64,000 nt of DNA from an uncultured Opitutales bacterium (GCA_964457855.1 CAYWEO010000004.1:4127-68126), one strand, 5' to 3'. Shown: positions 3,609 to 42,296, numbered from the stretch's first letter. Made by a program: numbers and translations. Notes: generated from the letters alone by a model not told the origin.

Positions 3609-3911
3609 GTGAACGCACCCAATCAGAACGTCCAGCAGTCTCTCGTAACTCGCATCATTGTCGTACAGAACAAGATGGGGATTCACGCGCGCCCAGCTGC
3701 CATGATCGTTCGCCTAGCCAACCGCTTCGAAAACACCCACCTCTCCATTGAAAAAGGCTCCATGATTATTAATGGGAAAAGTATCATGAGCGTCATGATG
3801 CTCGCCGCTTCCGAACGCACTCAACTCAAAATGACTGCTATCGGCCCACAAGCCAATGAGTTGCTGGATGACATGGAGGCCCTCTTTGCCTCCAAATTCA
3901 AAGAAAACTGA
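3609..3911 (+). CDS. ptsH: HPr-family phosphocarrier protein
   Basis: GIHARPAAMIV active-site His motif and the INGKSIMSVMML Ser46-type regulatory site. GTG start gives an N-terminus about 12 aa longer than usual. Confidence 0.8.
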   Translation: MNAPNQNVQQSLVTRIIVVQNKMGIHARPAAMIVRLANRFENTHLSIEKGSMIINGKSIMSVMMLAASERTQLKMTAIGPQANELLDDMEALFASKFKEN

Positions 3912-3913
3912 GG

Positions 3914-4045
3914 GGCGCCGTAGCGATTTCGAGCGCTAGGGTTCCGTTACAGAAAAAACCGAACCCCATCACGTACTACAGTACGCTCAGGGGATTCAAT
4001 TTTTCCTGTAGCCGTCCCTATCATCTCGAACTTGCTACGGCGCCT
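3914..4045. repeat. Family-A long palindromic element, copy A1
   Basis: Termini ggcgccgtagcgatttcgagcg / catctcgaacttgctacggcgcc are inverted complements. Conserved apex catcacgtac..agtacgctcagg. Confidence 0.85.
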
Positions 4046-4108
4046 CTCAGTTTGAGGGTAAGATTTGTACATACGGCGCCTCTCAGTTTTGAGGTAAGAT
4101 TTGTACAA
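4037..4108. repeat. 36-bp unit duplicated in tandem
   Basis: acggcgcctctcagtttgagggtaagatttgtacat (4037-4072) is followed by a near-identical unit (4073-4108). The first unit overlaps the right end of A1. Confidence 0.8.
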
Positions 4109-4278
4109 TTTCGGAAAACTTTCTTTTCGAAGAAAAGAAATGTTTTCCGAACCTTTCAAAGAAAAGCGGTATAGGAAGGCATTTTTTGGGCATGAAATGC
4201 CCAAAAAATGCCTTCCGAACAAAGATTTTTTTGGAAAGGGTCCGGGAAAACCACTTTTTGTAAAAAATGGTTTTCCCG
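4109..4278. repeat. Family-B three-hairpin composite, copy B1 (h1-linker-h2-h3)
   Basis: Hairpins at 4109-4150, 4173-4215 and 4241-4278. The same modules occur in the same order at 41890-42057. Confidence 0.85.
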
Positions 4279-4312
4279 GCAGCTCTCGTCCTACTCAAAA
4301 ACGGACCCACGA

Positions 4313-4439
4313 GCGAAATCGCGTCTAGTTTGAGATGACGAGCAGGCGCGCGAAGACTTCAACCCCCGAGCGTACTAACGTACGTGACGGGGTTGAAATT
4401 TGAGCGCAACGAACTCGACGCTCAAACTCGACGCGATTT
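4313..4439. repeat. Family-A element, inverted variant A2
   Basis: Termini aaatcgcgtctagtttgagatgacgagcaggcgcg / gcgcaacgaactcgacgctcaaactcgacgcgattt pair with one mismatch. Apex is cgagcgtactaacgtacgtgacgg. Confidence 0.75.
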
Positions 4440-4891
4440 TAACGATTAATAATCACCGTCGACGCGGGATTATTCTGCGAATTGAGGCGCTGCTGTTCTT
4501 GACGCACACGAGCTCTTTCGAGTTCTAGGCGTTCTTTTTCAAGCTTTAAGCGCTCTTCATCAACATCTTTCTGCAGAGAACCTGCGTATGTCGTCTGGGG
4601 TTGAGGCGGAGGCTGATAGGTGGCCCGAGCAGCGGCGGCGTCAGCAGCAGCGGCCTCTTTCTTCTCCGATTCTTTGCCTATGTAATTGCCACCGGCTGCG
4701 CCGAGAAGACCTCCACCGACGGCTCCCAGAGCCATTCCGGCGTTACCACCGATAGCATGGCCGATAAGACCGCCCCCTATGGCCCCTACGCCGGCACCCC
4801 CGAGAGTCCCTTGGGTTTCGGTACAGCCCGAAAAAGGAATGATTGTGAGTACCGAACCGCAAATTAAAGCGAGTTTCTTTACCGTATGCAT
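4439..4891 (-). CDS. Glycine-zipper lipoprotein with C-terminal coiled coil
   Basis: Lipobox ..IIPFSGC, a Gly-rich GAGVGAIGGGLIGHAIGGNAGMALGAVGGGLLGAAGG segment, then a charged heptad-like LKLEKERLELERARVRQEQQRL. Confidence 0.6.
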   Translation of the reverse strand: MHTVKKLALICGSVLTIIPFSGCTETQGTLGGAGVGAIGGGLIGHAIGGNAGMALGAVGGGLLGAAGGNYIGKESEKKEAAAADAAAARATYQPPPQPQTTYAGSLQKDVDEERLKLEKERLELERARVRQEQQRLNSQNNPASTVIINR

Positions 4892-4997: not shown

Positions 4998-5072
<75 letters not shown>

Positions 5073-6956: not shown

Positions 6957-7041
6957 GCTTAGGTGGTGAAATTGGTAGACACACACGTTTGAGGGGCGTG
7001 TGCCGCAAGGCATAGGGGTTCGAGTCCCCTCCTGAGCACCA
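6957..7041 (+). tRNA. tRNA-Leu (anticodon GAG)
   Basis: Acceptor stem gcttagg/cctgagc, anticodon loop TTGAGGG, long variable arm, T-arm ggttcgagtcccc, encoded CCA. Confidence 0.85.
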
Positions 7042-8030: not shown

Positions 8031-8621
8031 ATGGTAGAAATTTCAGCAGCGATGGTCAATGAATTGAGGCAAAAGACGGGCGCCGGCATGATGGATTGCA
8101 GGAATGCCCTTAAGGAATCTCAGGGAGATCAAGAAAAGGCCATCGAAATTTTGAGGAAGAAGGGCGTTGCGGATGCTGCCAAGCGGTCAGGTCGCAGTGC
8201 CAGCCAAGGGCTCATCGAGTCCTACATTCATACGGGTGGTGGCATCGGAGTGATCGTCGAGCTCAATTGCGAAACCGATTTTGTCGCCAAAACAGACGAG
8301 TTTAAACAGCTTGCGCGCAATATTTGCATGCAAGTTGCTGCCGCTCATCCCTTATACTTGGCAATCAATGACGTTCCGGCAGATGTCGTCCAAAAAGAGA
8401 AAGAAATCGCCTTTGAACAATATAAAGGAAAATTTGAACAAGCACGCGAGAAAATCGTCGAAGGGAAAATTTCAAAATGGTTCAGCGAAGTTTGCCTCCT
8501 CGAACAACCCTTCGTCAAGGACCCTAACGTCAAAATCAAGGACCTCATCACCCAAACCGGTGCCAAAATGCGCGAAAATATTGTGCTGAGGCGATTCATT
8601 CGCTACCAACTAGGAGCATGA
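8031..8621 (+). CDS. tsf: Elongation factor Ts (short form)
   Basis: N-terminal UBA-like motif VNELRQKTGAGMMDCRNALKE, plus position directly after rpsB. Confidence 0.9.
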   Translation: MVEISAAMVNELRQKTGAGMMDCRNALKESQGDQEKAIEILRKKGVADAAKRSGRSASQGLIESYIHTGGGIGVIVELNCETDFVAKTDEFKQLARNICMQVAAAHPLYLAINDVPADVVQKEKEIAFEQYKGKFEQAREKIVEGKISKWFSEVCLLEQPFVKDPNVKIKDLITQTGAKMRENIVLRRFIRYQLGA

Positions 8622-8625
8622 GGGG

Positions 8626-8750
8626 GTGCCATAGCGATTTCGAGCGGCGGGGGTGTTGCGCGAAAATTGTAACCCCGCTTACGTATTTCAATACGCTCGG
8701 GGGTTAAAATTTTCGCGCGCCTACCCGTCATCTCGAACTTACTATGGCGC
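8626..8750. repeat. Family-A element, copy A3
   Basis: gtgccatagcgatttcgagcgg ... catctcgaacttactatggcgc. Starts 4 nt after the tsf stop. Confidence 0.8.
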
Positions 8751-8799
8751 CCTTTGGGGTAAAACATCTCAATCCAGATTTTTTATTTTCATAGTTAGT

Positions 8800-8912
8800 G
8801 CTTTAAGTTTAAGATGCCAAGCAGGCGCGCGAGGTCGAGATGCCTGAACGTATTGTAATACGTGATGGCATTGAGAACGAGCGCAACGAACCTGGTGCTT
8901 AAAATCAAAGCG
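8800..8912. repeat. Family-A element, inverted variant A4
   Basis: gctttaagtttaagatgccaagcaggcgcgcg ... gcgcaacgaacctggtgcttaaaatcaaagcg, with apex gaacgtattgtaatacgtgatgg. Approximate ends. Confidence 0.6.
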
Positions 8913-8928
8913 CTAACTACGAAAATGT

Positions 8929-9693
8929 ATGGAAATTTTATGCTGGAACGTCAACGGTCTGCGTTCGATATTGGGGAAGGGGTTTGGAGAGGTCTTGGAG
9001 GCGTTGCAGCCGGATGTTGTTTGTTTGCAGGAGACGAGGGTTTATGGGGGAATTGAGCCGGATTTGAGGCAGTTTGGGTTTGGAACGGTGGTGTACAGTC
9101 ACGCGGAGAAGAAAGGTTATTCGGGGACTTTGTTGATGTCCAAGGAGAAGCCGATGAGCGTGGAAACGCAGGTGCCGTTTGAGCCCGTTCCGCATGAGGG
9201 GCGTGTGATTGTTGCTGAGTACGAACGCTTTTTTATCGTTAACGTGTATGTTCCGAATGCGAAAATGGATCTATCGCGCCTGCCGTACCGCGCAAACCAT
9301 TGGGACCCAAGCTTTTGCAGCTACTTGTGTGAACTAGAGAAGAAAAAGCCCGTCATCGTGTGTGGCGATTTTAACGTCGCGCACCAGGAAATTGACCTCG
9401 TAAATCCAGCTAGCAATCGATTTAACCCCGGATTTACCGACGAGGAACGCCAGGGGTTTTCCAACTACTTAAATAAGGGTTTCGTCGACATTTTCCGCGA
9501 ACGCCATCCCGGCCAACGCGGCCTCTACACCTGGTGGTCCTACCGCGCCGGCGCTCGAGCCCGCAACATCGGATGGAGAATCGACTACTTTCTCATCTCT
9601 CCCTCCCTCGCCCCCGCCGTCGAAGGCGCCAGCATTTACGAAAGGATCCTCGGGTCTGATCATGCACCGGTTCGGTTGCGGTTGACGCCGTAG
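8929..9693 (+). CDS. xth: Exodeoxyribonuclease III (AP endonuclease)
   Basis: MEILCWNVNGLR start, CLQETR, GDFNVAH and a terminal GSDHAPV motif, the standard ExoIII/APE1 family signature. Confidence 0.9.
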   Translation: MEILCWNVNGLRSILGKGFGEVLEALQPDVVCLQETRVYGGIEPDLRQFGFGTVVYSHAEKKGYSGTLLMSKEKPMSVETQVPFEPVPHEGRVIVAEYERFFIVNVYVPNAKMDLSRLPYRANHWDPSFCSYLCELEKKKPVIVCGDFNVAHQEIDLVNPASNRFNPGFTDEERQGFSNYLNKGFVDIFRERHPGQRGLYTWWSYRAGARARNIGWRIDYFLISPSLAPAVEGASIYERILGSDHAPVRLRLTP

Positions 9694-9811
9694 CGATTTC
9701 GAGCGCTAGGGTTCCGTTCAGAAAATTTTTTAACTCATCACGTATTTCAATACGCTCAGAGTTAAAATTTTTTCTGAGCCGTCCCTATCATCTCGAACTT
9801 ACTACGGCGTC
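9685..9811. repeat. Family-A element, copy A5
   Basis: acgccgtagcgatttcgagcgctagggttccgtt ... ccctatcatctcgaacttactacggcgt. Its left terminus contains the xth stop codon. Confidence 0.85.
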
Positions 9812-9840
9812 CGTTGGTACTTTGGGCTCTCAAACCCTCA

Positions 9841-9964
9841 CAAGAAAAGCGGTATCGTAAGGCATTTTTATGGCACGGAGTGCCAAAAAATGCCTTACGA
9901 ATAGAAATTTTTAGAGGGAAGGGTCCGGGAAACCCCCTTTTTTATAAAAAAGGGGGTTTCCCGG
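9841..9964. repeat. Family-B composite, copy B2 (linker-h2-h3, no h1)
   Basis: Hairpins at 9856-9899 and 9925-9964, preceded by the linker aagaaaagcggtat. Confidence 0.8.
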
Positions 9965-12176: not shown

Positions 12177-12872
12177 GTGGACACGCACGGCCAGTTGATC
12201 GTTATCGCAACCCCCATCGGAAACATGGGGGATCTGTCCGCCAGGGCCATTGCATCCTTGCGCACTTGCGACTCTATTGCTTGCGAAGACACTCGCGTCG
12301 CTTCAAAACTCCTCCGCCACCACGGAATTACCGACAAACGCCTCATCTCCTACCGCGATGCCAATGAACAAAGACAGGTCGGTTCGTTGATCGAAAAAAT
12401 CCAAAACGGCCAGCAAGTCGGCCTCATTTCCGACGCCGGAACGCCCGGAATCAGCGACCCAGGGTTCCGTATTGTCCGCGAATGCCGACGTAAAGCCTTG
12501 CCCGTCAGCGTCATCCCAGGCCCATGCGCGTTCGTAACCGCTCTGGTCGGGTCAGGATTTCCCTCCGATAGCTTCTTCTTCGGCGGCTTCCTCCCCAACA
12601 AATCCACTGCTCGCCGTCGCTTATTCGCTTCCTACAAAGACTTTAAGCATACCTGCATTTTCTACGAATCCTGCCACCGCATCGAAAAAAGCCTCGCCGA
12701 CCTCTCCGCAGAAATCGGCCCCGACCGCTACGTCTGTGTCTCCAAAGAACTTACCAAACTCTTCGAACGCTGGGTCGTCGGCAAACTCCAATCAGTCCTC
12801 TCCGAACTCAAAACTGTCGCAATAAAAGGCGAATTTGTCGTGGTCGTTGCGCCGGCGGACTTTGTGTTGTAG
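12177..12872 (+). CDS. rsmI: 16S rRNA (cytidine1402-2'-O)-methyltransferase
   Basis: LIVIATPIGNMGDLSARAI..L..CD.IACEDTR and ISDAGTPGISDPG motifs of the RsmI/tetrapyrrole-methylase fold. Confidence 0.85.
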   Translation: MDTHGQLIVIATPIGNMGDLSARAIASLRTCDSIACEDTRVASKLLRHHGITDKRLISYRDANEQRQVGSLIEKIQNGQQVGLISDAGTPGISDPGFRIVRECRRKALPVSVIPGPCAFVTALVGSGFPSDSFFFGGFLPNKSTARRRLFASYKDFKHTCIFYESCHRIEKSLADLSAEIGPDRYVCVSKELTKLFERWVVGKLQSVLSELKTVAIKGEFVVVVAPADFVL

Positions 12873-13033
12873 ACGCCGTAGCGATTTCGAGCGGCGAGTT
12901 CGTTGCGCATCGGATCGTGGGTTACTCACGTGTTGGGGTAATTGTTTACAATTTTTCAATTGTAAACAATTCAATACACTCGCAATCCACGAACTTGCGG
13001 GCCTGCTCGTCATCTCGAACTTTGCTACGGCGT
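12873..13033. repeat. Family-A element, copy A6 (long variant with an extra inner palindrome)
   Basis: acgccgtagcgatttcgagcggcgagttcgttgcgc ... gctcgtcatctcgaactttgctacggcgt. The inner palindrome is gtaattgtttacaatttttcaattgtaaacaattc. Starts directly after the rsmI stop. Confidence 0.8.
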
Positions 13034-13188
13034 CCTGTACTAAGTAAGGCATGTATTAGACCAGCTATTTTATGAAGCGAAGAATACCCCCGAATCTAGC
13101 GCTCAAAATCGAGGCCGTCCCTTTTTTGCTCAGTATGAGCAAAAAATACCGCTTTTCTTTTGAAGGTTCGGAAACTGTTGGGACCTCG

Positions 13189-13312
13189 GGCGTAGCTTCT
13201 ATTTCGAGATGATAGGCAGGCGACCGAGGGCGAGATCTCTGAGCGTACTGATGTACTGATGAAATCGAGATCCGATGGTCAACGCACCTAGCGCTCGAAA
13301 GAGATGCCACGC
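13189..13312. repeat. Family-A element, inverted variant A7
   Basis: ggcgtagcttctatttcgagatgataggcaggcg ... cacctagcgctcgaaagagatgccacgc, with apex ctgagcgtactgatgtactgatg. Approximate ends. Confidence 0.65.
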
Positions 13313-13359
13313 ACGTGCTCCCATTTCTGTTCTGGAAATAGAAAGCTTCCGAAATATTC

Positions 13360-14512: not shown

Positions 14513-14632
14513 TTTTCGGAAAACTTTTCCGGGAAAACCATTTTTTGCAAAAATTGGTTTTCCCGGACCCTTTCCAAAAAAACTCTTAACTCAGAAGGCA
14601 TTTTTTGGCACATAGTGCCAAAAAATGCCTTC
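14513..14632. repeat. Family-B composite, copy B3 (inverted order: partial h1, h3, h2)
   Basis: Hairpins at 14529-14566 (ccgggaaaacc...ggttttcccgg) and 14594-14632 (gaaggcattttttggca...tgccaaaaaatgccttc). Confidence 0.8.
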
Positions 14633-14665
14633 CGATAACACTTCAAAAAACCCCGTAAACGCGCA

Positions 14666-14793
14666 GACGCTATAGCAAGTCCGAGATGATAGGGACGGCT
14701 CAGAAAAAATTTTACCTCTGAGCGTACTAACGTACGTGATGAGGTGAAATTTTTTCTGGACGGAACCCTAGCGCTCGGAATCGCTATGGCGTC
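14666..14793. repeat. Family-A element, inverted copy A8
   Basis: gacgctatagcaagtccgagatgatagggacggc ... ggaaccctagcgctcggaatcgctatggcgtc. The flanks gcgcag/ctgcgc extend the palindrome to 14661-14798. Confidence 0.85.
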
Positions 14794-14801
14794 TGCGCGT
14801 T

Positions 14802-15296
14802 TTACACACTCAGCATCGCCGGGGCTTTGCCACCTGCCGCATCCTGCTGTTGCGATAGTTTTGGGGTACCGGTTCCATTTTTCAGGGATTCGACGTGTTG
14901 TCCCCAGAATTCGACGGCATTAACGAAACTTTCAATCATTTTTTCAAATCTCTCGTATTCCAGGGCATTGAGGGGCTCTTCTGCACGCAACATAGCGTAT
15001 TCAGTGATGCCATCGACGGATAAAGTGGCGCCTTGCGTACCAGCCCAAAAGAGGTTAGCCTCCAGCATTTCTTGGATCAAATCAACGCGCAGCTGAGGGT
15101 CTTCTAAATCTTCTAGTTCAGCGATTTTTGAGGAAAAATGGATCATCGAACGATCCGCCTCGTAAACCATTCTGATGAGCAAGACGTTGTCAAATAACAG
15201 GAAAACTTGCCCGCTATCGTCAAGGACGAGTCCATCCAACTTTAATGTTTTCGATAATAATTCCAAAAGTGTTTTGAATTTTTCTAACATATCCAC
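14802..15296 (-). CDS. T3SS class I (CesT/SycE-like) chaperone
   Basis: 164 aa and acidic. The N-terminal pattern F..LLE.L...L.L..L.LD..G...L.FD....I... and the later LL..ML..N are typical of CesT/SycE-type chaperones. Next to sctC. Confidence 0.6.
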   Translation of the reverse strand: MDMLEKFKTLLELLSKTLKLDGLVLDDSGQVFLLFDNVLLIRMVYEADRSMIHFSSKIAELEDLEDPQLRVDLIQEMLEANLFWAGTQGATLSVDGITEYAMLRAEEPLNALEYERFEKMIESFVNAVEFWGQHVESLKNGTGTPKLSQQQDAAGGKAPAMLSV

Positions 15297-26034: not shown

Positions 26035-28143
26035 TTAGCTCTTTAGACCAATTCTTCCCAAAGGCCGGATGGTGATTTCGTCCGTCAGCTCTTGGTGAGA
26101 CAGGACCGGCAATTCGTAAATCTCAAGTTCAATGAGTTTCCGCACGTAACGCCGAATGTCCATTGAAGTGAGCAGGACGGGGCGGTTGTCGAAGCGGCTG
26201 ATATTGCCGACCTCTTTCTTGATGTTGGCAACGAGTTTCTTGGCTGTTGGCGGATCGAGCGCAAGGTAACTGCCCGCAGAGGTTTGGCGAATCGCCTTTC
26301 GGACAACGTCCTCCACCTCCGCTTCCAGCAAGTAGACGGACAGCGTATTACGCCCACCACTAAACTTGTAACTAATGTAACGACGCAAACTCGAACGCAC
26401 GTAATCCGTCAGCAGAACGGGTTCCTTTTCCTTCTGTCCCCACTCGATGAGACACTGCATAATGAGACGCAAATTGCGGATCGAAATCTCTTCTTGGACA
26501 AGGCGTTGGAGGATTTCCGTAATCTTCTGAATGGGAAGAATTCGTTGAATTTCGCGAATAATTTCCGGAAACTCCTTTTCCATGTTCTCTAGCAAGAACT
26601 TACACTCCTGAATCCCGACAAATTCCCCTGCATATTTTTTCAGCATGAAGGAGAGGTGGTAGGTCAAAATTTGGGGAGTCTTCATGAACAAGATCTTAGC
26701 TTTTTCGAGCTTGGCAACCTCTTGATTCGCAATCCATAACGTTTCGATATAGGGCAAGAAGGGATCACCTTCAGTAAATGGAATCCCGATCATCGAAAGG
26801 TTATCCTTACTTTCTCGCGCAAGAACGTGTCCCGCAAGGAGTTTCCCCTCGCTCATAGGAACTTCGTTCAAAAGAATCTGGTAAACACCCTCGGCTAACG
26901 CATCGTTGTAACGCAGGTGAATTCCCGGAAACGGCACCCCCAAGTCGTGGTACAACGCACGACGGACTTGGATCAATTGCTCGTTAAGCACGTCTGGTTC
27001 AATGGTTTCTTCAACGGAAGTCGCGACATCGAGCATCAAAGGAACCGTAATGGAAAATTTGGCCTCGCCATCTTCTTCGGCGTTTTTGATCGGCGCTTTT
27101 CGAGGAACGTCGGGATCCATCGGGGATCGTTTATCCTTCGATTTTGATGTCTTTTTCGCGAGCGCCTTGGCCTTCATGAGACCGTATCCCACGAGCAGCA
27201 GCAACGTTGCGAGAATGACAAAGGGTGCTTTTGGAAAACCGGGGATTGTCATCAAACCAATGACCATGACACCAGCAAGGATGAGGGCCTTTGGCTGCCC
27301 AAGGAGTTGGTTTCCAATGTCTTTCCCGAGCACAACGCCCTGTTCGGAACCCACTTTCGTGACAATGATACCCGCCGTAATCGATATCAAAAGAGCAGGG
27401 ATTTGCGAGACAAGACCATCACCGATCGTCAAAATCGAGTACGTTGTGACCGCCTTACCAACATCCATTCCGCGTTGCAGAACACCGATCGTCAGACCTC
27501 CGATAATGTTGATGGCTGTGATAATCAAACCCGCGATGGCGTCCCCCTTCACGAACTTCATGGCACCGTCCATAGCGCCGTACAGTTGGTTTTCACGCTC
27601 AAGATCGTTTCTCCGACGTTTCGCCTCGTCCATTTCGATCGTCCCGGCGCGCATGTCCGCATCAATGCTCATTTGCTTCCCAGGCATCGCGTCCAAAGTA
27701 AACCGTGCGGCCACTTCCGCGACGCGTTCGGCACCCTTCGTAATGACGAGGAATTGGACGATCAAGAGGATCAAAAAGATCACCGCTCCAACGACGAAAT
27801 TGCCACCGACGACGAACTTACCGAACGTAAAGATGATGTGACCCGCATCCGCACGCAAAAGGATCATCCGCGTTGCACTGATGTTGAGGGACAATCGGAA
27901 GAGAGTCGTAAAGAGCAACATACTCGGGAACGTCGAGAATGCGAGCACGTTTGGCAGATACAACGCCATCATGAGGAGGACCGTCGCGAGCGTCAGATTG
28001 ACGGCGATCAGCGCATCGAGGACAGCCGTCGGGATTGGGATGATCATCAACGAGATGATCATAACCACAAGCAACGCTAAGAAAATATCACTGAATCGCG
28101 ATAAACGTGCGATGCCTCCGTCAACTATGGCTCCAAACTTCAT
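26035..28143 (-). CDS. sctV: T3SS export-gate protein SctV (YscV/LcrD/CdsV; FHIPEP family)
   Basis: 702 aa. N-terminal polytopic domain with RVAEVAARFTLDAMPGKQMSIDAD and FVKGDAIAG motifs, followed by a cytoplasmic C-domain. Confidence 0.95.
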   Translation of the reverse strand: MKFGAIVDGGIARLSRFSDIFLALLVVMIISLMIIPIPTAVLDALIAVNLTLATVLLMMALYLPNVLAFSTFPSMLLFTTLFRLSLNISATRMILLRADAGHIIFTFGKFVVGGNFVVGAVIFLILLIVQFLVITKGAERVAEVAARFTLDAMPGKQMSIDADMRAGTIEMDEAKRRRNDLERENQLYGAMDGAMKFVKGDAIAGLIITAINIIGGLTIGVLQRGMDVGKAVTTYSILTIGDGLVSQIPALLISITAGIIVTKVGSEQGVVLGKDIGNQLLGQPKALILAGVMVIGLMTIPGFPKAPFVILATLLLLVGYGLMKAKALAKKTSKSKDKRSPMDPDVPRKAPIKNAEEDGEAKFSITVPLMLDVATSVEETIEPDVLNEQLIQVRRALYHDLGVPFPGIHLRYNDALAEGVYQILLNEVPMSEGKLLAGHVLARESKDNLSMIGIPFTEGDPFLPYIETLWIANQEVAKLEKAKILFMKTPQILTYHLSFMLKKYAGEFVGIQECKFLLENMEKEFPEIIREIQRILPIQKITEILQRLVQEEISIRNLRLIMQCLIEWGQKEKEPVLLTDYVRSSLRRYISYKFSGGRNTLSVYLLEAEVEDVVRKAIRQTSAGSYLALDPPTAKKLVANIKKEVGNISRFDNRPVLLTSMDIRRYVRKLIELEIYELPVLSHQELTDEITIRPLGRIGLKS

Positions 28144-28553: not shown

Positions 28554-28719
28554 GGCGCCGTAGCGATTTGCAGTCGCTGTGGTTCCGTTAAGACGGCCCC
28601 GATTTTGAGCGGCGAGTTCGTTGCGCATCGGATCTCAATGCCATCACGTACGTTAGTACGCTCAGGCATCTCGTCCTCACGCGCCTGCTCGTCATCTTAA
28701 AATCGGGGCATTCCTACGT
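28554..28719. repeat. Family-A: partial left end (28554-28600) plus complete copy A9 (28603-28719)
   Basis: ggcgccgtagcgatttgcag.. fragment, then gccccgattttgagcggcgagttcgttgcgc ... gcgcctgctcgtcatcttaaaatcggggc, with apex catcacgtacgttagtacgctcagg. Confidence 0.8.
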
Positions 28720-28771: not shown

Positions 28772-28880
28772 CGAAAGGCATTTTAGGTCGGCCCTACAGG
28801 CCGACCTAAAATGCCTTTCGATATGCTTTTCTTTGAAGGGCCCGGGAAACTTTCTTTTCTTCGAAAAGAAAGTTTCCCGG
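28772..28880. repeat. Family-B composite, copy B4 (h2 variant + h1)
   Basis: cgaaaggcattttaggtcggcc/ggccgacctaaaatgcctttcg (28772-28820), plus h1 at 28842-28880 identical to 895-933. Confidence 0.8.
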
Positions 28881-28892
28881 AATTAGCCTTTA

Positions 28893-41070: not shown

Positions 41071-41145
41071 GGGTCGGTAGCTCAGCGGTAGAGCAGTGGC
41101 CTTTTAAGCCATTGGTCCTGGGTTCGAGTCCCAGCCGGCCTACCA
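41071..41145 (+). tRNA. tRNA-Lys (anticodon TTT)
   Basis: Acceptor stem gggtcgg/ccggcct, D-arm tagctcagcggtagagc, anticodon loop CTTTTAA, T-arm gggttcgagtccc, encoded CCA. Confidence 0.85.
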
Positions 41146-41286
41146 AAATCAAAAGCAACCCATCAATTTTGAGCACTAGGTTCGTTGCGAAAAAAATTTA
41201 ACCCATCACGTACATCAGTACGCTCAGGGATTAAATTTTTTTCGCGCCTGCCTATCATCTCAAAATTGATGGGTTGCTTTTGATTT
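41146..41286. repeat. Family-A element, copy A10
   Basis: 28-nt perfect outer stem aaatcaaaagcaacccatcaattttgag / ctcaaaattgatgggttgcttttgattt, with apex catcacgtacatcagtacgctcagg. Starts at the nucleotide after the tRNA-Lys CCA. Confidence 0.85.
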
Positions 41287-41889: not shown

Positions 41890-42057
41890 TTCGGAAACTT
41901 TTCTGTTCCGGAACAGAAAAGTTTCCGAACCTTCAAAAGAAAAGCGGAATCGGAAGGCATTTTTTGGCACTTCGTGTCCAAAAAATGCCTTCCGAATTGA
42001 GAGTTTTTTTGGAAAGGGCCCGGGAAAACCTATTTTTGCAAAAAATGGTTTTCCCGG
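41890..42057. repeat. Family-B three-hairpin composite, copy B5 (h1-linker-h2-h3)
   Basis: Hairpins at 41890-41929, 41951-41994 and 42020-42057. Same order and orientation as B1. Confidence 0.85.
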
Positions 42058-42065
42058 CGGCCTAC

Positions 42066-42296
42066 CTAGCGAAACCTCAAGCAGTTATTCGCCTGCGAGC
42101 ACCGTGGGCAGGGCTCGACGTCTGTGGTTGAGGTGCCTTGGTAGATGAGTTCGCAATGGGAGCAATAAAAGACGTTTGCGGCGCTGGAACATGGTTTATA
42201 CGCACGCCGATCCTGTTCATCGCATAGCATCCAAAGAACGAATACAAAAAAAAGAGCCATGAATGTCAATAGGGCAAACATGGCTTCAATATCCAT
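42066..42296 (-). CDS. Small membrane-anchored zinc-ribbon protein (hypothetical)
   Basis: 76 aa. N-terminal TM FALLTFMALFFVFVLWML, then CSHC...x13...CPRC. Lies 32 nt downstream of rplQ. Confidence 0.4.
   Translation of the reverse strand: MDIEAMFALLTFMALFFVFVLWMLCDEQDRRAYKPCSSAANVFYCSHCELIYQGTSTTDVEPCPRCSQANNCLRFR

Follow-up and report, generated by a model that had tools for sequence, protein, structure and literature searches.

ERIC-type palindromes with copy-specific, self-complementary stems at gene and tRNA ends in an uncultured Opitutales bacterium

The window considered here is the whole stretch of 64,000 nucleotides that was analysed, from an uncultured Opitutales bacterium (GCA_964457855.1, CAYWEO010000004.1:4127-68126). 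It carries ten copies of a non-coding palindromic repeat of the ERIC type, with a unit of ~126 nt, referred to below as family A. All ten had been listed in the original prediction, and alignment together with an nhmmer profile established them as full-length members of a single family. Built from these ten copies, the profile returned 194 non-overlapping matches across the genome, 135 full-length and ~59 partial, and its matches within the window are exactly the ten, all at the places listed. The host genome is a reduced one, 1.08 Mb in 43 contigs and 92.7% complete, and full copies occur about once per 8 kb, or ~125 per Mb. The host itself is an Opitutae-like verrucomicrobium, the best homologues of its xth gene being found in Verrucomicrobia. 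At the Rfam gathering score, the window yielded four tRNAs only and no match to family A; Rfam matches below threshold over 3880-4470 were set aside as chance hairpin matches. Every copy forms one long hairpin whichever strand is folded (z of -9 to -15 against dinucleotide shuffles), and the folds on the two strands are equally good. The finding exceeds chance and is real.

The flagged element, copy 1, lies on the plus strand and spans 3905..4053 when its locus-specific base is included (z -9.3 and -10.2 on the two strands; nhmmer match C4:8035-8178). Its left arm opens with a locus-specific layer, AAACTGAGGG (3905..3914), which holds the TGA stop (3909-3911) of an ORF at 3609-3911. This is followed by a 13-nt layer, GCGCCGTAGCGAT (3915..3927), the counterpart of the ERIC terminal repeat as judged from the profile of pairing and conservation and from the alignment of our model with ERIC, and by a conserved box, TTCGAGCG (3928..3935), whose columns are near-invariant in both alignments of the family (A1 and A2). 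The alignments place an ERIC-like centre, CATCACGTAC-TACA-GTACGCTCAG, at the apex (3967..3990), a motif also found in other Verrucomicrobiota and, in the version TCACTTAC..GTAAGCTC, in the ERIC of Escherichia coli. The right arm returns through the aligned conserved box CATCTCGAA with its unpaired CAT (4022..4030) and closes with the 13-nt layer CTTGCTACGGCGC and then CTCTCAGTTT, which from sequence and folding looks like a mirror copy of the gene end (together 4031..4053). A 36-nt tandem duplication (TACGGCGCCTCTCAGTTTGAGGGTAAGATTTGTACA, two units, 92% identical) occupies 4036-4107 and begins inside the right outer arm of this copy; it may be the trace of slippage or template switching at the base of the hairpin.

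Seven of the ten copies in the window, copy 1 included, adjoin a co-oriented gene or tRNA end. Copy 2 (4316..4439, minus strand) has its left arm against the TAA stop of the minus-strand ORF 4439-4891, copy 3 (8621..8755, plus) begins at the TGA stop (8619-8621) of ORF 8031-8621, and copy 5 (9679..9818, plus) contains within its 13-nt layer the final two codons of xth (8929-9693) together with the TAG stop of that gene. Copy 6 (12868..13039, plus) begins at the TAG stop of rsmI (12177-12872) and bears an extra palindrome of ~34 nt at its apex, while the stem of copy 8 (14654..14806, minus) takes in the TAA stop of the minus-strand ORF 14802-15296. Copy 10 (41146..41286, plus) begins at the first base after tRNA-Lys(ttt) (41071..41145, plus), whose 3' CCA end it adjoins, and has a perfect basal helix of 28 bp. 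The remaining three are placed otherwise. Copy 4 (8785..8926, minus) lies in reverse orientation 2 nt upstream of the xth start and is not at a co-oriented gene end. Copy 7 (13179..13323, minus) is part of a composite present in several copies, in which the element lies inside an arm of the other hairpin family, F1, and has a stem of its own, TGGGA..TCCCA. Copy 9 (28596..28709, plus) lies within the left arm, now degenerate, of an older member of the family and is likewise not at a gene end. The additional palindrome of copy 6 (~12933-12979) is perfect, reads AATTGTTTACAATT-TTTC-AATTGTAAACAATT and replaces the normal apical loop, a hairpin inserted at the tip of a hairpin.

Members of the family share a layered anatomy. 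Read in family orientation, an outer stem is followed by the box TTYRAGCG, a mid-arm, a variable inner stem, the apex, the return arms, the box CATCTYRAA and the outer stem again. The conserved core comprises the two boxes, the mid-arms and the apex TCACGTAC-N4-GTACGCTC; it measures 96-103 nt from box to box, and 124-131 nt with the 13-nt layers (98 aligned copies). The mid-arms fall into three or four types, among them GGCGAG.../...CTCGTC and GCTAGGG.../...CCCTATC. Because the CAT of the CATCTYRAA box is unpaired, the element is asymmetric and has a polarity. Around the core lies the 13-nt stem layer, which differs from copy to copy, and in about half of the copies a third layer of ~10 nt (up to 25) consists of local sequence. 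Both of these outer layers pair within a copy and do not pair between copies.

Across positions 1-13, counted outward from the box, 80-87% of positions are Watson-Crick paired, with an information content of 0.06-0.6 bits at most positions and of ~0.1-0.2 bits in several columns. Positions 14-23 show no sequence conservation at all, yet 37-60% are paired against ~25% with shuffled partners, and pairing reaches background from position 25 outward. Beyond the box, the flanks of one copy pair for a median of 20 nt, a figure that falls to 5 nt once the right flank is taken from a different copy, which bears out the claim that the flanks are copy-specific and nevertheless self-complementary. Stem lengths are bimodal, at 12-16 and 20-28 nt, and in many copies the helices run unbroken across the layer junction as 22-28 bp of perfect pairing. 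Among the 98 aligned copies, 94.1% of cells are paired, compared with 74.4% for shuffled and at most 47% for slid partners, and 791 double-sided changes are observed where 231 are expected. Covariation is present in all 12 outer-stem pairs, several of them with all four Watson-Crick types, and is strong. The original description of the outermost sequences as completely different has to be softened: ~30 copies share the GACGCCGTAGCGAT/CTTRCTACGGCGTC layer, and a loose consensus, ..G.CGTCGAT, persists in the 13-nt layer.

Enterobacterial repetitive intergenic consensus (ERIC) elements, also called IRU or RU-1, were reportedly described by Sharples and Lloyd in 1990 and by Hulton et al. in 1991, and E. 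coli K-12 has about 30 copies. The family had not been recognised as ERIC in the original prediction; this proved wrong. A covariance model built solely from the family A copies of this genome matches E. coli ERICs end to end and in one orientation. Its score against the ERIC of the cusC-cusF spacer is 33.1 bits, compared with 4.5 bits for the opposite strand, and over one E. coli chromosome it finds 13 full-length sites of 126-127 nt, at 33-51 bits and with genome-wide E-values down to 9.7e-9. Boxes, mid-arm and apex align column for column, and the 13-nt layer, ..CGTCGAT, corresponds to the ERIC terminal repeat CTCGTCAT. Both elements are imperfect palindromes of ~126-127 nt that form a single hairpin, laid out as a terminal stem, TTCRAG/CTCGAA boxes, a mid-arm and an apex of the form TCACKTAC-N4-GTAMGCTC. 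ERIC has the central repeat GTCACTTAC-N4-GTAAGCTCC with TTCAAG/CTCGAA boxes where family A has TCACGTAC-N4-GTACGCTC with TTYRAG/CTYRAA, and some family A copies carry the TCACTTAC..GTAAGCTC apex, or TCACTTAC-TTTT-AGTAAGCTC, which is almost the ERIC centre. The sites are also alike, being non-coding, intergenic and co-transcribed positions beside gene ends; the cusC copy begins 6 nt past the stop. Among 400 other Verrucomicrobiota genomes, two hold weakly related elements whose apex is the same.

Family A is therefore built like ERIC and works like ERIC, and it lacks three features by which ERIC is defined, namely conserved terminal repeats, a flanking TA or target duplication, and the host range. 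In published reviews, ERICs have conserved terminal repeats flanked by TA and are confined to Enterobacteriaceae and Vibrionaceae (PMC3184786; PMC10969869). The terminal layer of family A, in contrast, is copy-specific, its stem continues into host DNA, TA is present at only 15 of 266 ends, and the host belongs to the Verrucomicrobiota rather than to the two families of ERIC hosts (PMC10969869). Its orientation to gene ends is almost obligatory and it occupies the ends of tRNA genes, which further separates it from ERIC. Density differs as well, with ~125 full copies per Mb compared with the ~30 copies of E. coli K-12. Among the ERICs of one E. coli chromosome (NZ_AP018808.1), divergent members have outermost heptamers that differ yet remain complementary (TTTCCC/GGGAAA, CTCCCCC/GGGGGAG and TTTAACC/GGTTAAA, the usual pair being TATACTC/GAGTATA). 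These varied ends are a weak echo, in the classic host, of what family A shows.

REP sequences, REPINs and BIMEs offer a second comparison, since they too are extragenic palindromes at gene 3' ends that form mosaics with other hairpins and have covarying arms (PMC3116915; PMC3733652), and one family A subfamily has GTAG...CTAC in its ends. However, REP units are 20-40 nt long, REPINs are doublets, and both are defined by a RAYT gene and a GTAG/CGTC tag, whereas the family A unit measures ~126 nt. Membership was rejected, with the RAYT gene (Y1 HUH, PF01797) absent and GTAG confined to the CGCCGTAGCGAT subfamily.

Across the genome, family A has settled at gene and tRNA 3' ends in a near-obligatory orientation, with the same arm towards the gene. 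A co-oriented gene lies on the left-arm side of 95 of 130 copies, and in 62 of those 95 the stop is at most 20 nt from the stem, usually inside it (median distance -3). There is hardly any gene end near the right-arm side; five candidate ORFs that would converge into the right arm, implying the opposite direction of copying, are short, run through repeats and are probably spurious. Stops fall either just outside the 13-nt layer (-15 to -20) or on codons that the element itself carries, which are the TAG of CCGTAG, the TGA of TTTGAG and the TAG of GCGCTAGG. Because the reading frame enters the left arm and ends at such an element-borne stop, a number of housekeeping proteins have element-encoded tails (..RRF* or ..DFER*). 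Examples outside the window include ruvB (C7:11164-12165), a permease (C3:38864-39841) and a Nudix protein (C5:56499-57065).

Of 43 tRNA genes, 19 have a co-oriented copy within 21 nt of their 3' end, and the box of the 17 full copies stands at a fixed distance from the last tRNA base, 22-24 nt in 14 and 12-13 nt in three. The locus-specific layer after tRNAs resembles an intrinsic terminator. Over the family as a whole, a run of at least four T within 12 nt past the stem follows 30 of 127 copies, against a background of 9%. Among 70 long copies, 33 have a T-tract at the right base within the locus-specific layer, 20 of these with a left A-tract as well, and 31 have neither tract, carrying instead AT-rich coding sequence or tRNA acceptor ends that are mirrored distally. 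Occupied tRNAs show an A-run beside the CCA and a T-run beyond the element. Those without an element lie in the window at 4998-5072, 6957-7041 and 35300-35386, with 21 more elsewhere, and in many of them the CCA is followed by a T-run (ccaTTTTT, ccaGGTTTTTG).

A second repeat family, composed of three hairpins, is found in the window at 4107-4280, 9833-9962, 14528-14643, 28825-28891, 41917-42080 and 895-944. Its modules are TCGGAAGGCATTTTT..AAAAATGCCTTCCGA, CCGGGAAAACC..GGTTTTCCCGG and CGGAAACTTTCTTTTC..GAAAAGAAAGTTTCCG, with constant basal stems and variable, self-complementary tips. This repeat lies downstream of 90 of 127 family A copies and upstream of 32.

The complementarity of the outer stems is of a DNA type, because G·T pairs are rarer than A·C mismatches, the two strands fold equally well and identical cores bear unrelated stems. 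In the 13-nt layer, to which this count was confined since the score for the extension layer rewards G·T pairs, 1092 cells are Watson-Crick, 37 are G·T and 73 are A·C, with no excess of wobble pairs. Core and stem are, moreover, independent of each other. Many pairs of copies have box-to-box cores that are 98-100% identical and outer stems that are unrelated from 3-8 nt beyond the box, as with C6:60866 and C3:59078. The composite in which one element lies within another, recognised by a shared mutated box, occurs at no fewer than five loci, where both the nested core and patches of the stem vary. Chimeras whose arms disagree are found occasionally and point to recombination among the copies.

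Overall, the outer stems give the appearance of mirror copies, made at the DNA level, of the gene end beside them. For RuvB, the profile alignment extends through residue 327, and the mirrored layer includes the codons CAA ATC CTG; for GlgC it reaches position 428 of 429, and ATT TGT TAG has its mirror in CTAACAAAT. RecJ behaves in the same way. At tRNAs, the complementarity of the right flank to its own tRNA 3' end is 4.18, compared with 3.52 +/- 0.19 for the ends of other tRNAs (P ~0.001), the clearest mirrors being 8 nt of tRNA-Met and the CGACCA of tRNA-Pro. As the gene-side arm holds the conserved end codons of RuvB and GlgC and the tRNA 3' ends, it is the distal arm that is the derived mirror copy. 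The mirrored tracts range from 3 to 25 nt. Of the two explanations first proposed, compensatory maintenance of an RNA stem is disfavoured, and copying that creates a new inverted flank at each site agrees best with these mirrored ends, with the reservation that it does not accompany every insertion. When the filled arm of F1 is compared with its consensus, the copy nested there is seen to be a clean insertion: it came with a 24-nt stem of its own and took over no sequence from the target.

Other accounts of the stems must be set against these observations. A core with its 13-nt layer might enter the loops of existing hairpins, mainly intrinsic terminators, so that the outer stems would be host terminators. 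The sites are indeed terminator sites, to judge from the co-oriented genes upstream (95/130), the nearby stops (62) and the tRNAs (19/43); the right-base T-tracts (33/70, 20 with the A-tract) and the T-runs (30/127 against 9%) agree, and the constant distance from tRNA to box would suit a compact terminator. Yet no hairpin stands at the CCA of any of the 24 unoccupied tRNAs of the same genome, and among 652 gene ends that lack the element, a hairpin of as little as 7 bp spans the stop in just 21 (3%). When CYGTRGYGAT was sought in the absence of the core, as a mark of coreless outer hairpins, truncated left ends were all that came up, and a genome-wide hairpin scan yielded a few ordinary terminators along with three further families of repeats, with no 'GAT-loop-ATC' hairpins. 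Remnants of a loop are absent from the layer junctions, where pairing is perfect and uninterrupted, neither tract is present in 31 of 70 long copies, and the change of the 13-nt layer between copies with identical cores is left unexplained. The outer hairpins were thus probably absent before the element arrived, as judged from paralogous sites within one genome, the form in which the refuting condition first set, a pre-existing terminator, was examined and came out negative. As regards orthologous sites, the 30 GTDB relatives all belong to other families and lack the repeat, the closest xth homologue among 5.8 billion proteins is 60% identical, and a scan of genome contigs for relatives returned distant genomes only. 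We regard loop insertion as unlikely, and consider it a still poorer prospect that the hairpins act in 3' UTRs or trailers, as RNase III or RNase E sites, terminators or stabilisers, with their pairing kept by compensatory evolution at the RNA level. Selection of this kind would account for the strict co-orientation with the upstream gene or tRNA, the start exactly at the stop codon or CCA, the strong covariation and the conserved asymmetric bulges, and Yersinia ERICs do affect mRNA decay in an orientation-dependent manner (PMC3184786; PMC10969869). It predicts, however, the opposite of the G·T and A·C counts found (37 against 73), and it sits poorly with identical cores in unrelated stems and with equal folding of both strands. 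Point mutation followed by selection is also an implausible source of perfect 10-25-nt complements of coding ends.

Transposition by a dedicated enzyme fares no better. It is quite improbable that a putative protein reads the boxes and apex as a folded hairpin, integrates the core at stops and tRNA ends, and fills in an inverted target copy of ~10-23 nt, even if such an enzyme would agree with stem lengths that are bimodal rather than smoothly decaying, with the fixed distance to tRNA ends and with an apex conserved from Verrucomicrobiota to E. coli. Reviews of ERIC name no transposase (PMC3184786; PMC10969869), which leaves room for an enzyme of this kind; against it, no candidate gene was found among the four families searched, the F1-nested copy has no inverted target copy, and the mirrored tracts vary from 3 to 25 nt. 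The search for mobilising genes covered Y1/RAYT (PF01797, positive in control genomes), the reverse transcriptase family RVT_1, IS110 and DDE_Tnp_1, and all four families are absent from the genome. With the genome 92.7% complete, a mobilising gene could sit in the missing part; the absence of the four families fits a process run by host machinery. Least probable by far is an ordinary MITE, whose transposase would recognise conserved terminal inverted repeats and leave direct target duplications, the outer pairing being simply the terminal repeat. Size, hairpin shape and abundance are MITE-like, and ~30 copies do have one terminal sequence in common. Nevertheless, the terminal layer differs between copies with identical cores, pairing runs into unique flanking DNA, TA ends are lacking, and the genome has no transposase gene of the Y1/RAYT, IS110 or DDE_Tnp_1 type. 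Direct repeats of at least 3 nt are at chance level at every candidate boundary, in keeping with the initial view that direct target duplications do not explain the flanks. The MITE reading is largely refuted.

The reading we prefer is that cores are swapped between hairpin tips and that the arms are homogenised and extended by fold-back template switching, a proposal that commands about half of our confidence. The core, as a contiguous segment at the tip of the hairpin, would pass from one locus to another, or be converted, through copy-choice or recombination for which the boxes serve as anchors. Because a transfer or conversion tract centred on the apex would span the contiguous tip, both arms of the inner layers would change together, which would explain the inner 'covariation' without selection. 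Intra-strand template switching during DNA synthesis would then keep the outer arms complementary and push them into the flanking DNA. The gene-side arm, containing a stop codon, last codons or a tRNA end, would be under selection, and the surviving outcome would therefore be one in which a mirror image of that arm replaces the sequence of the free distal arm. Such a process would resemble quasipalindrome template-switch mutation, the Ripley model. In the literature, that mutation acts at the DNA level, perfects inverted repeats, makes multi-base compensations in one step and can expand arms (PMC7202029; PMC8794818; PMC13100816). It predicts stems of Watson-Crick pairs only, on both strands, in agreement with the stems seen here. 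The same literature also has template switching fixing pairing and homogenising inverted repeats as it perfects and expands them (PMC8794818; PMC13100816). The mutation differs in being described there as a point process at single loci, and not as a rule for the ends of a mobile repeat family or for the mirroring of gene and tRNA ends across a genome.

The chemistry of template switching is inferred here, as is the timing of mirror copying, whether at insertion or afterwards. Several observations fit the proposed process poorly. Template switching alone leaves the near-absolute orientation to gene ends unexplained. Likewise, the growth of a palindrome without regulation does not predict fixed spacings of 22-24 or 12-13 nt between tRNA and box, the right-base T-tracts in 33 of 70 long copies are terminator-like after tRNAs, and the F1-nested copy mirrored nothing from its target. 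The likeliest source of the strict orientation may be an orientation-dependent behaviour of the co-transcribed hairpin, by analogy with the ERICs of Yersinia, with coupling to the direction of transcription or replication as the alternative. Copying is the best supported of the readings, if unproven, and its truth is evenly balanced in our judgement.

To our knowledge, the means by which ERICs spread has been an open question since about 1990, and we know of no transposase for them. The present genome amounts to an extreme natural experiment in this respect, combining ~125 full copies per Mb, no recognisable transposase, cores visibly uncoupled from their stems, and stems in which the ends of genes and tRNAs are mirrored. 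ERIC architecture and template switching were known before; what is new is the occurrence of locus-specific, self-mirroring stems on an ERIC-type palindrome, at extreme density and outside the published hosts. The architecture is hereby extended far past its published host range, which points to a conserved recognition module. If the copying account is true, a classic repeat family would be tied to the template-switch (quasipalindrome) pathway, and 'compensatory' covariation could arise without any RNA function, a caution for the discovery of RNAs by covariation. It is a tentative and on balance doubtful extension of this account that ERIC-type elements are pan-bacterial palindromes that need no transposase, with an apex-box module that may be read by a conserved host factor, cores transplanted between tips by copy-choice during replication, and stems rebuilt by mirroring the adjacent gene or tRNA end, and that they here replace ordinary terminators as transcript punctuation.

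Two further features of the window concern the host and its genes. Type III secretion genes, for the secretin SctC and the export gate SctV, and a fused MurC-MurB lie at 15360-17381, 26035-28143 and 32832-35180, a combination that suggests a host-associated lifestyle for a verrucomicrobium with a 1.08-Mb genome. Finally, just 5' of tRNA-Lys, the region 39477-41104 contains a tandem set of short paralogous genes that have lipoprotein-like signal sequences and whose upstream regions are repeated (direct repeats D4, D9, D12 and D17).
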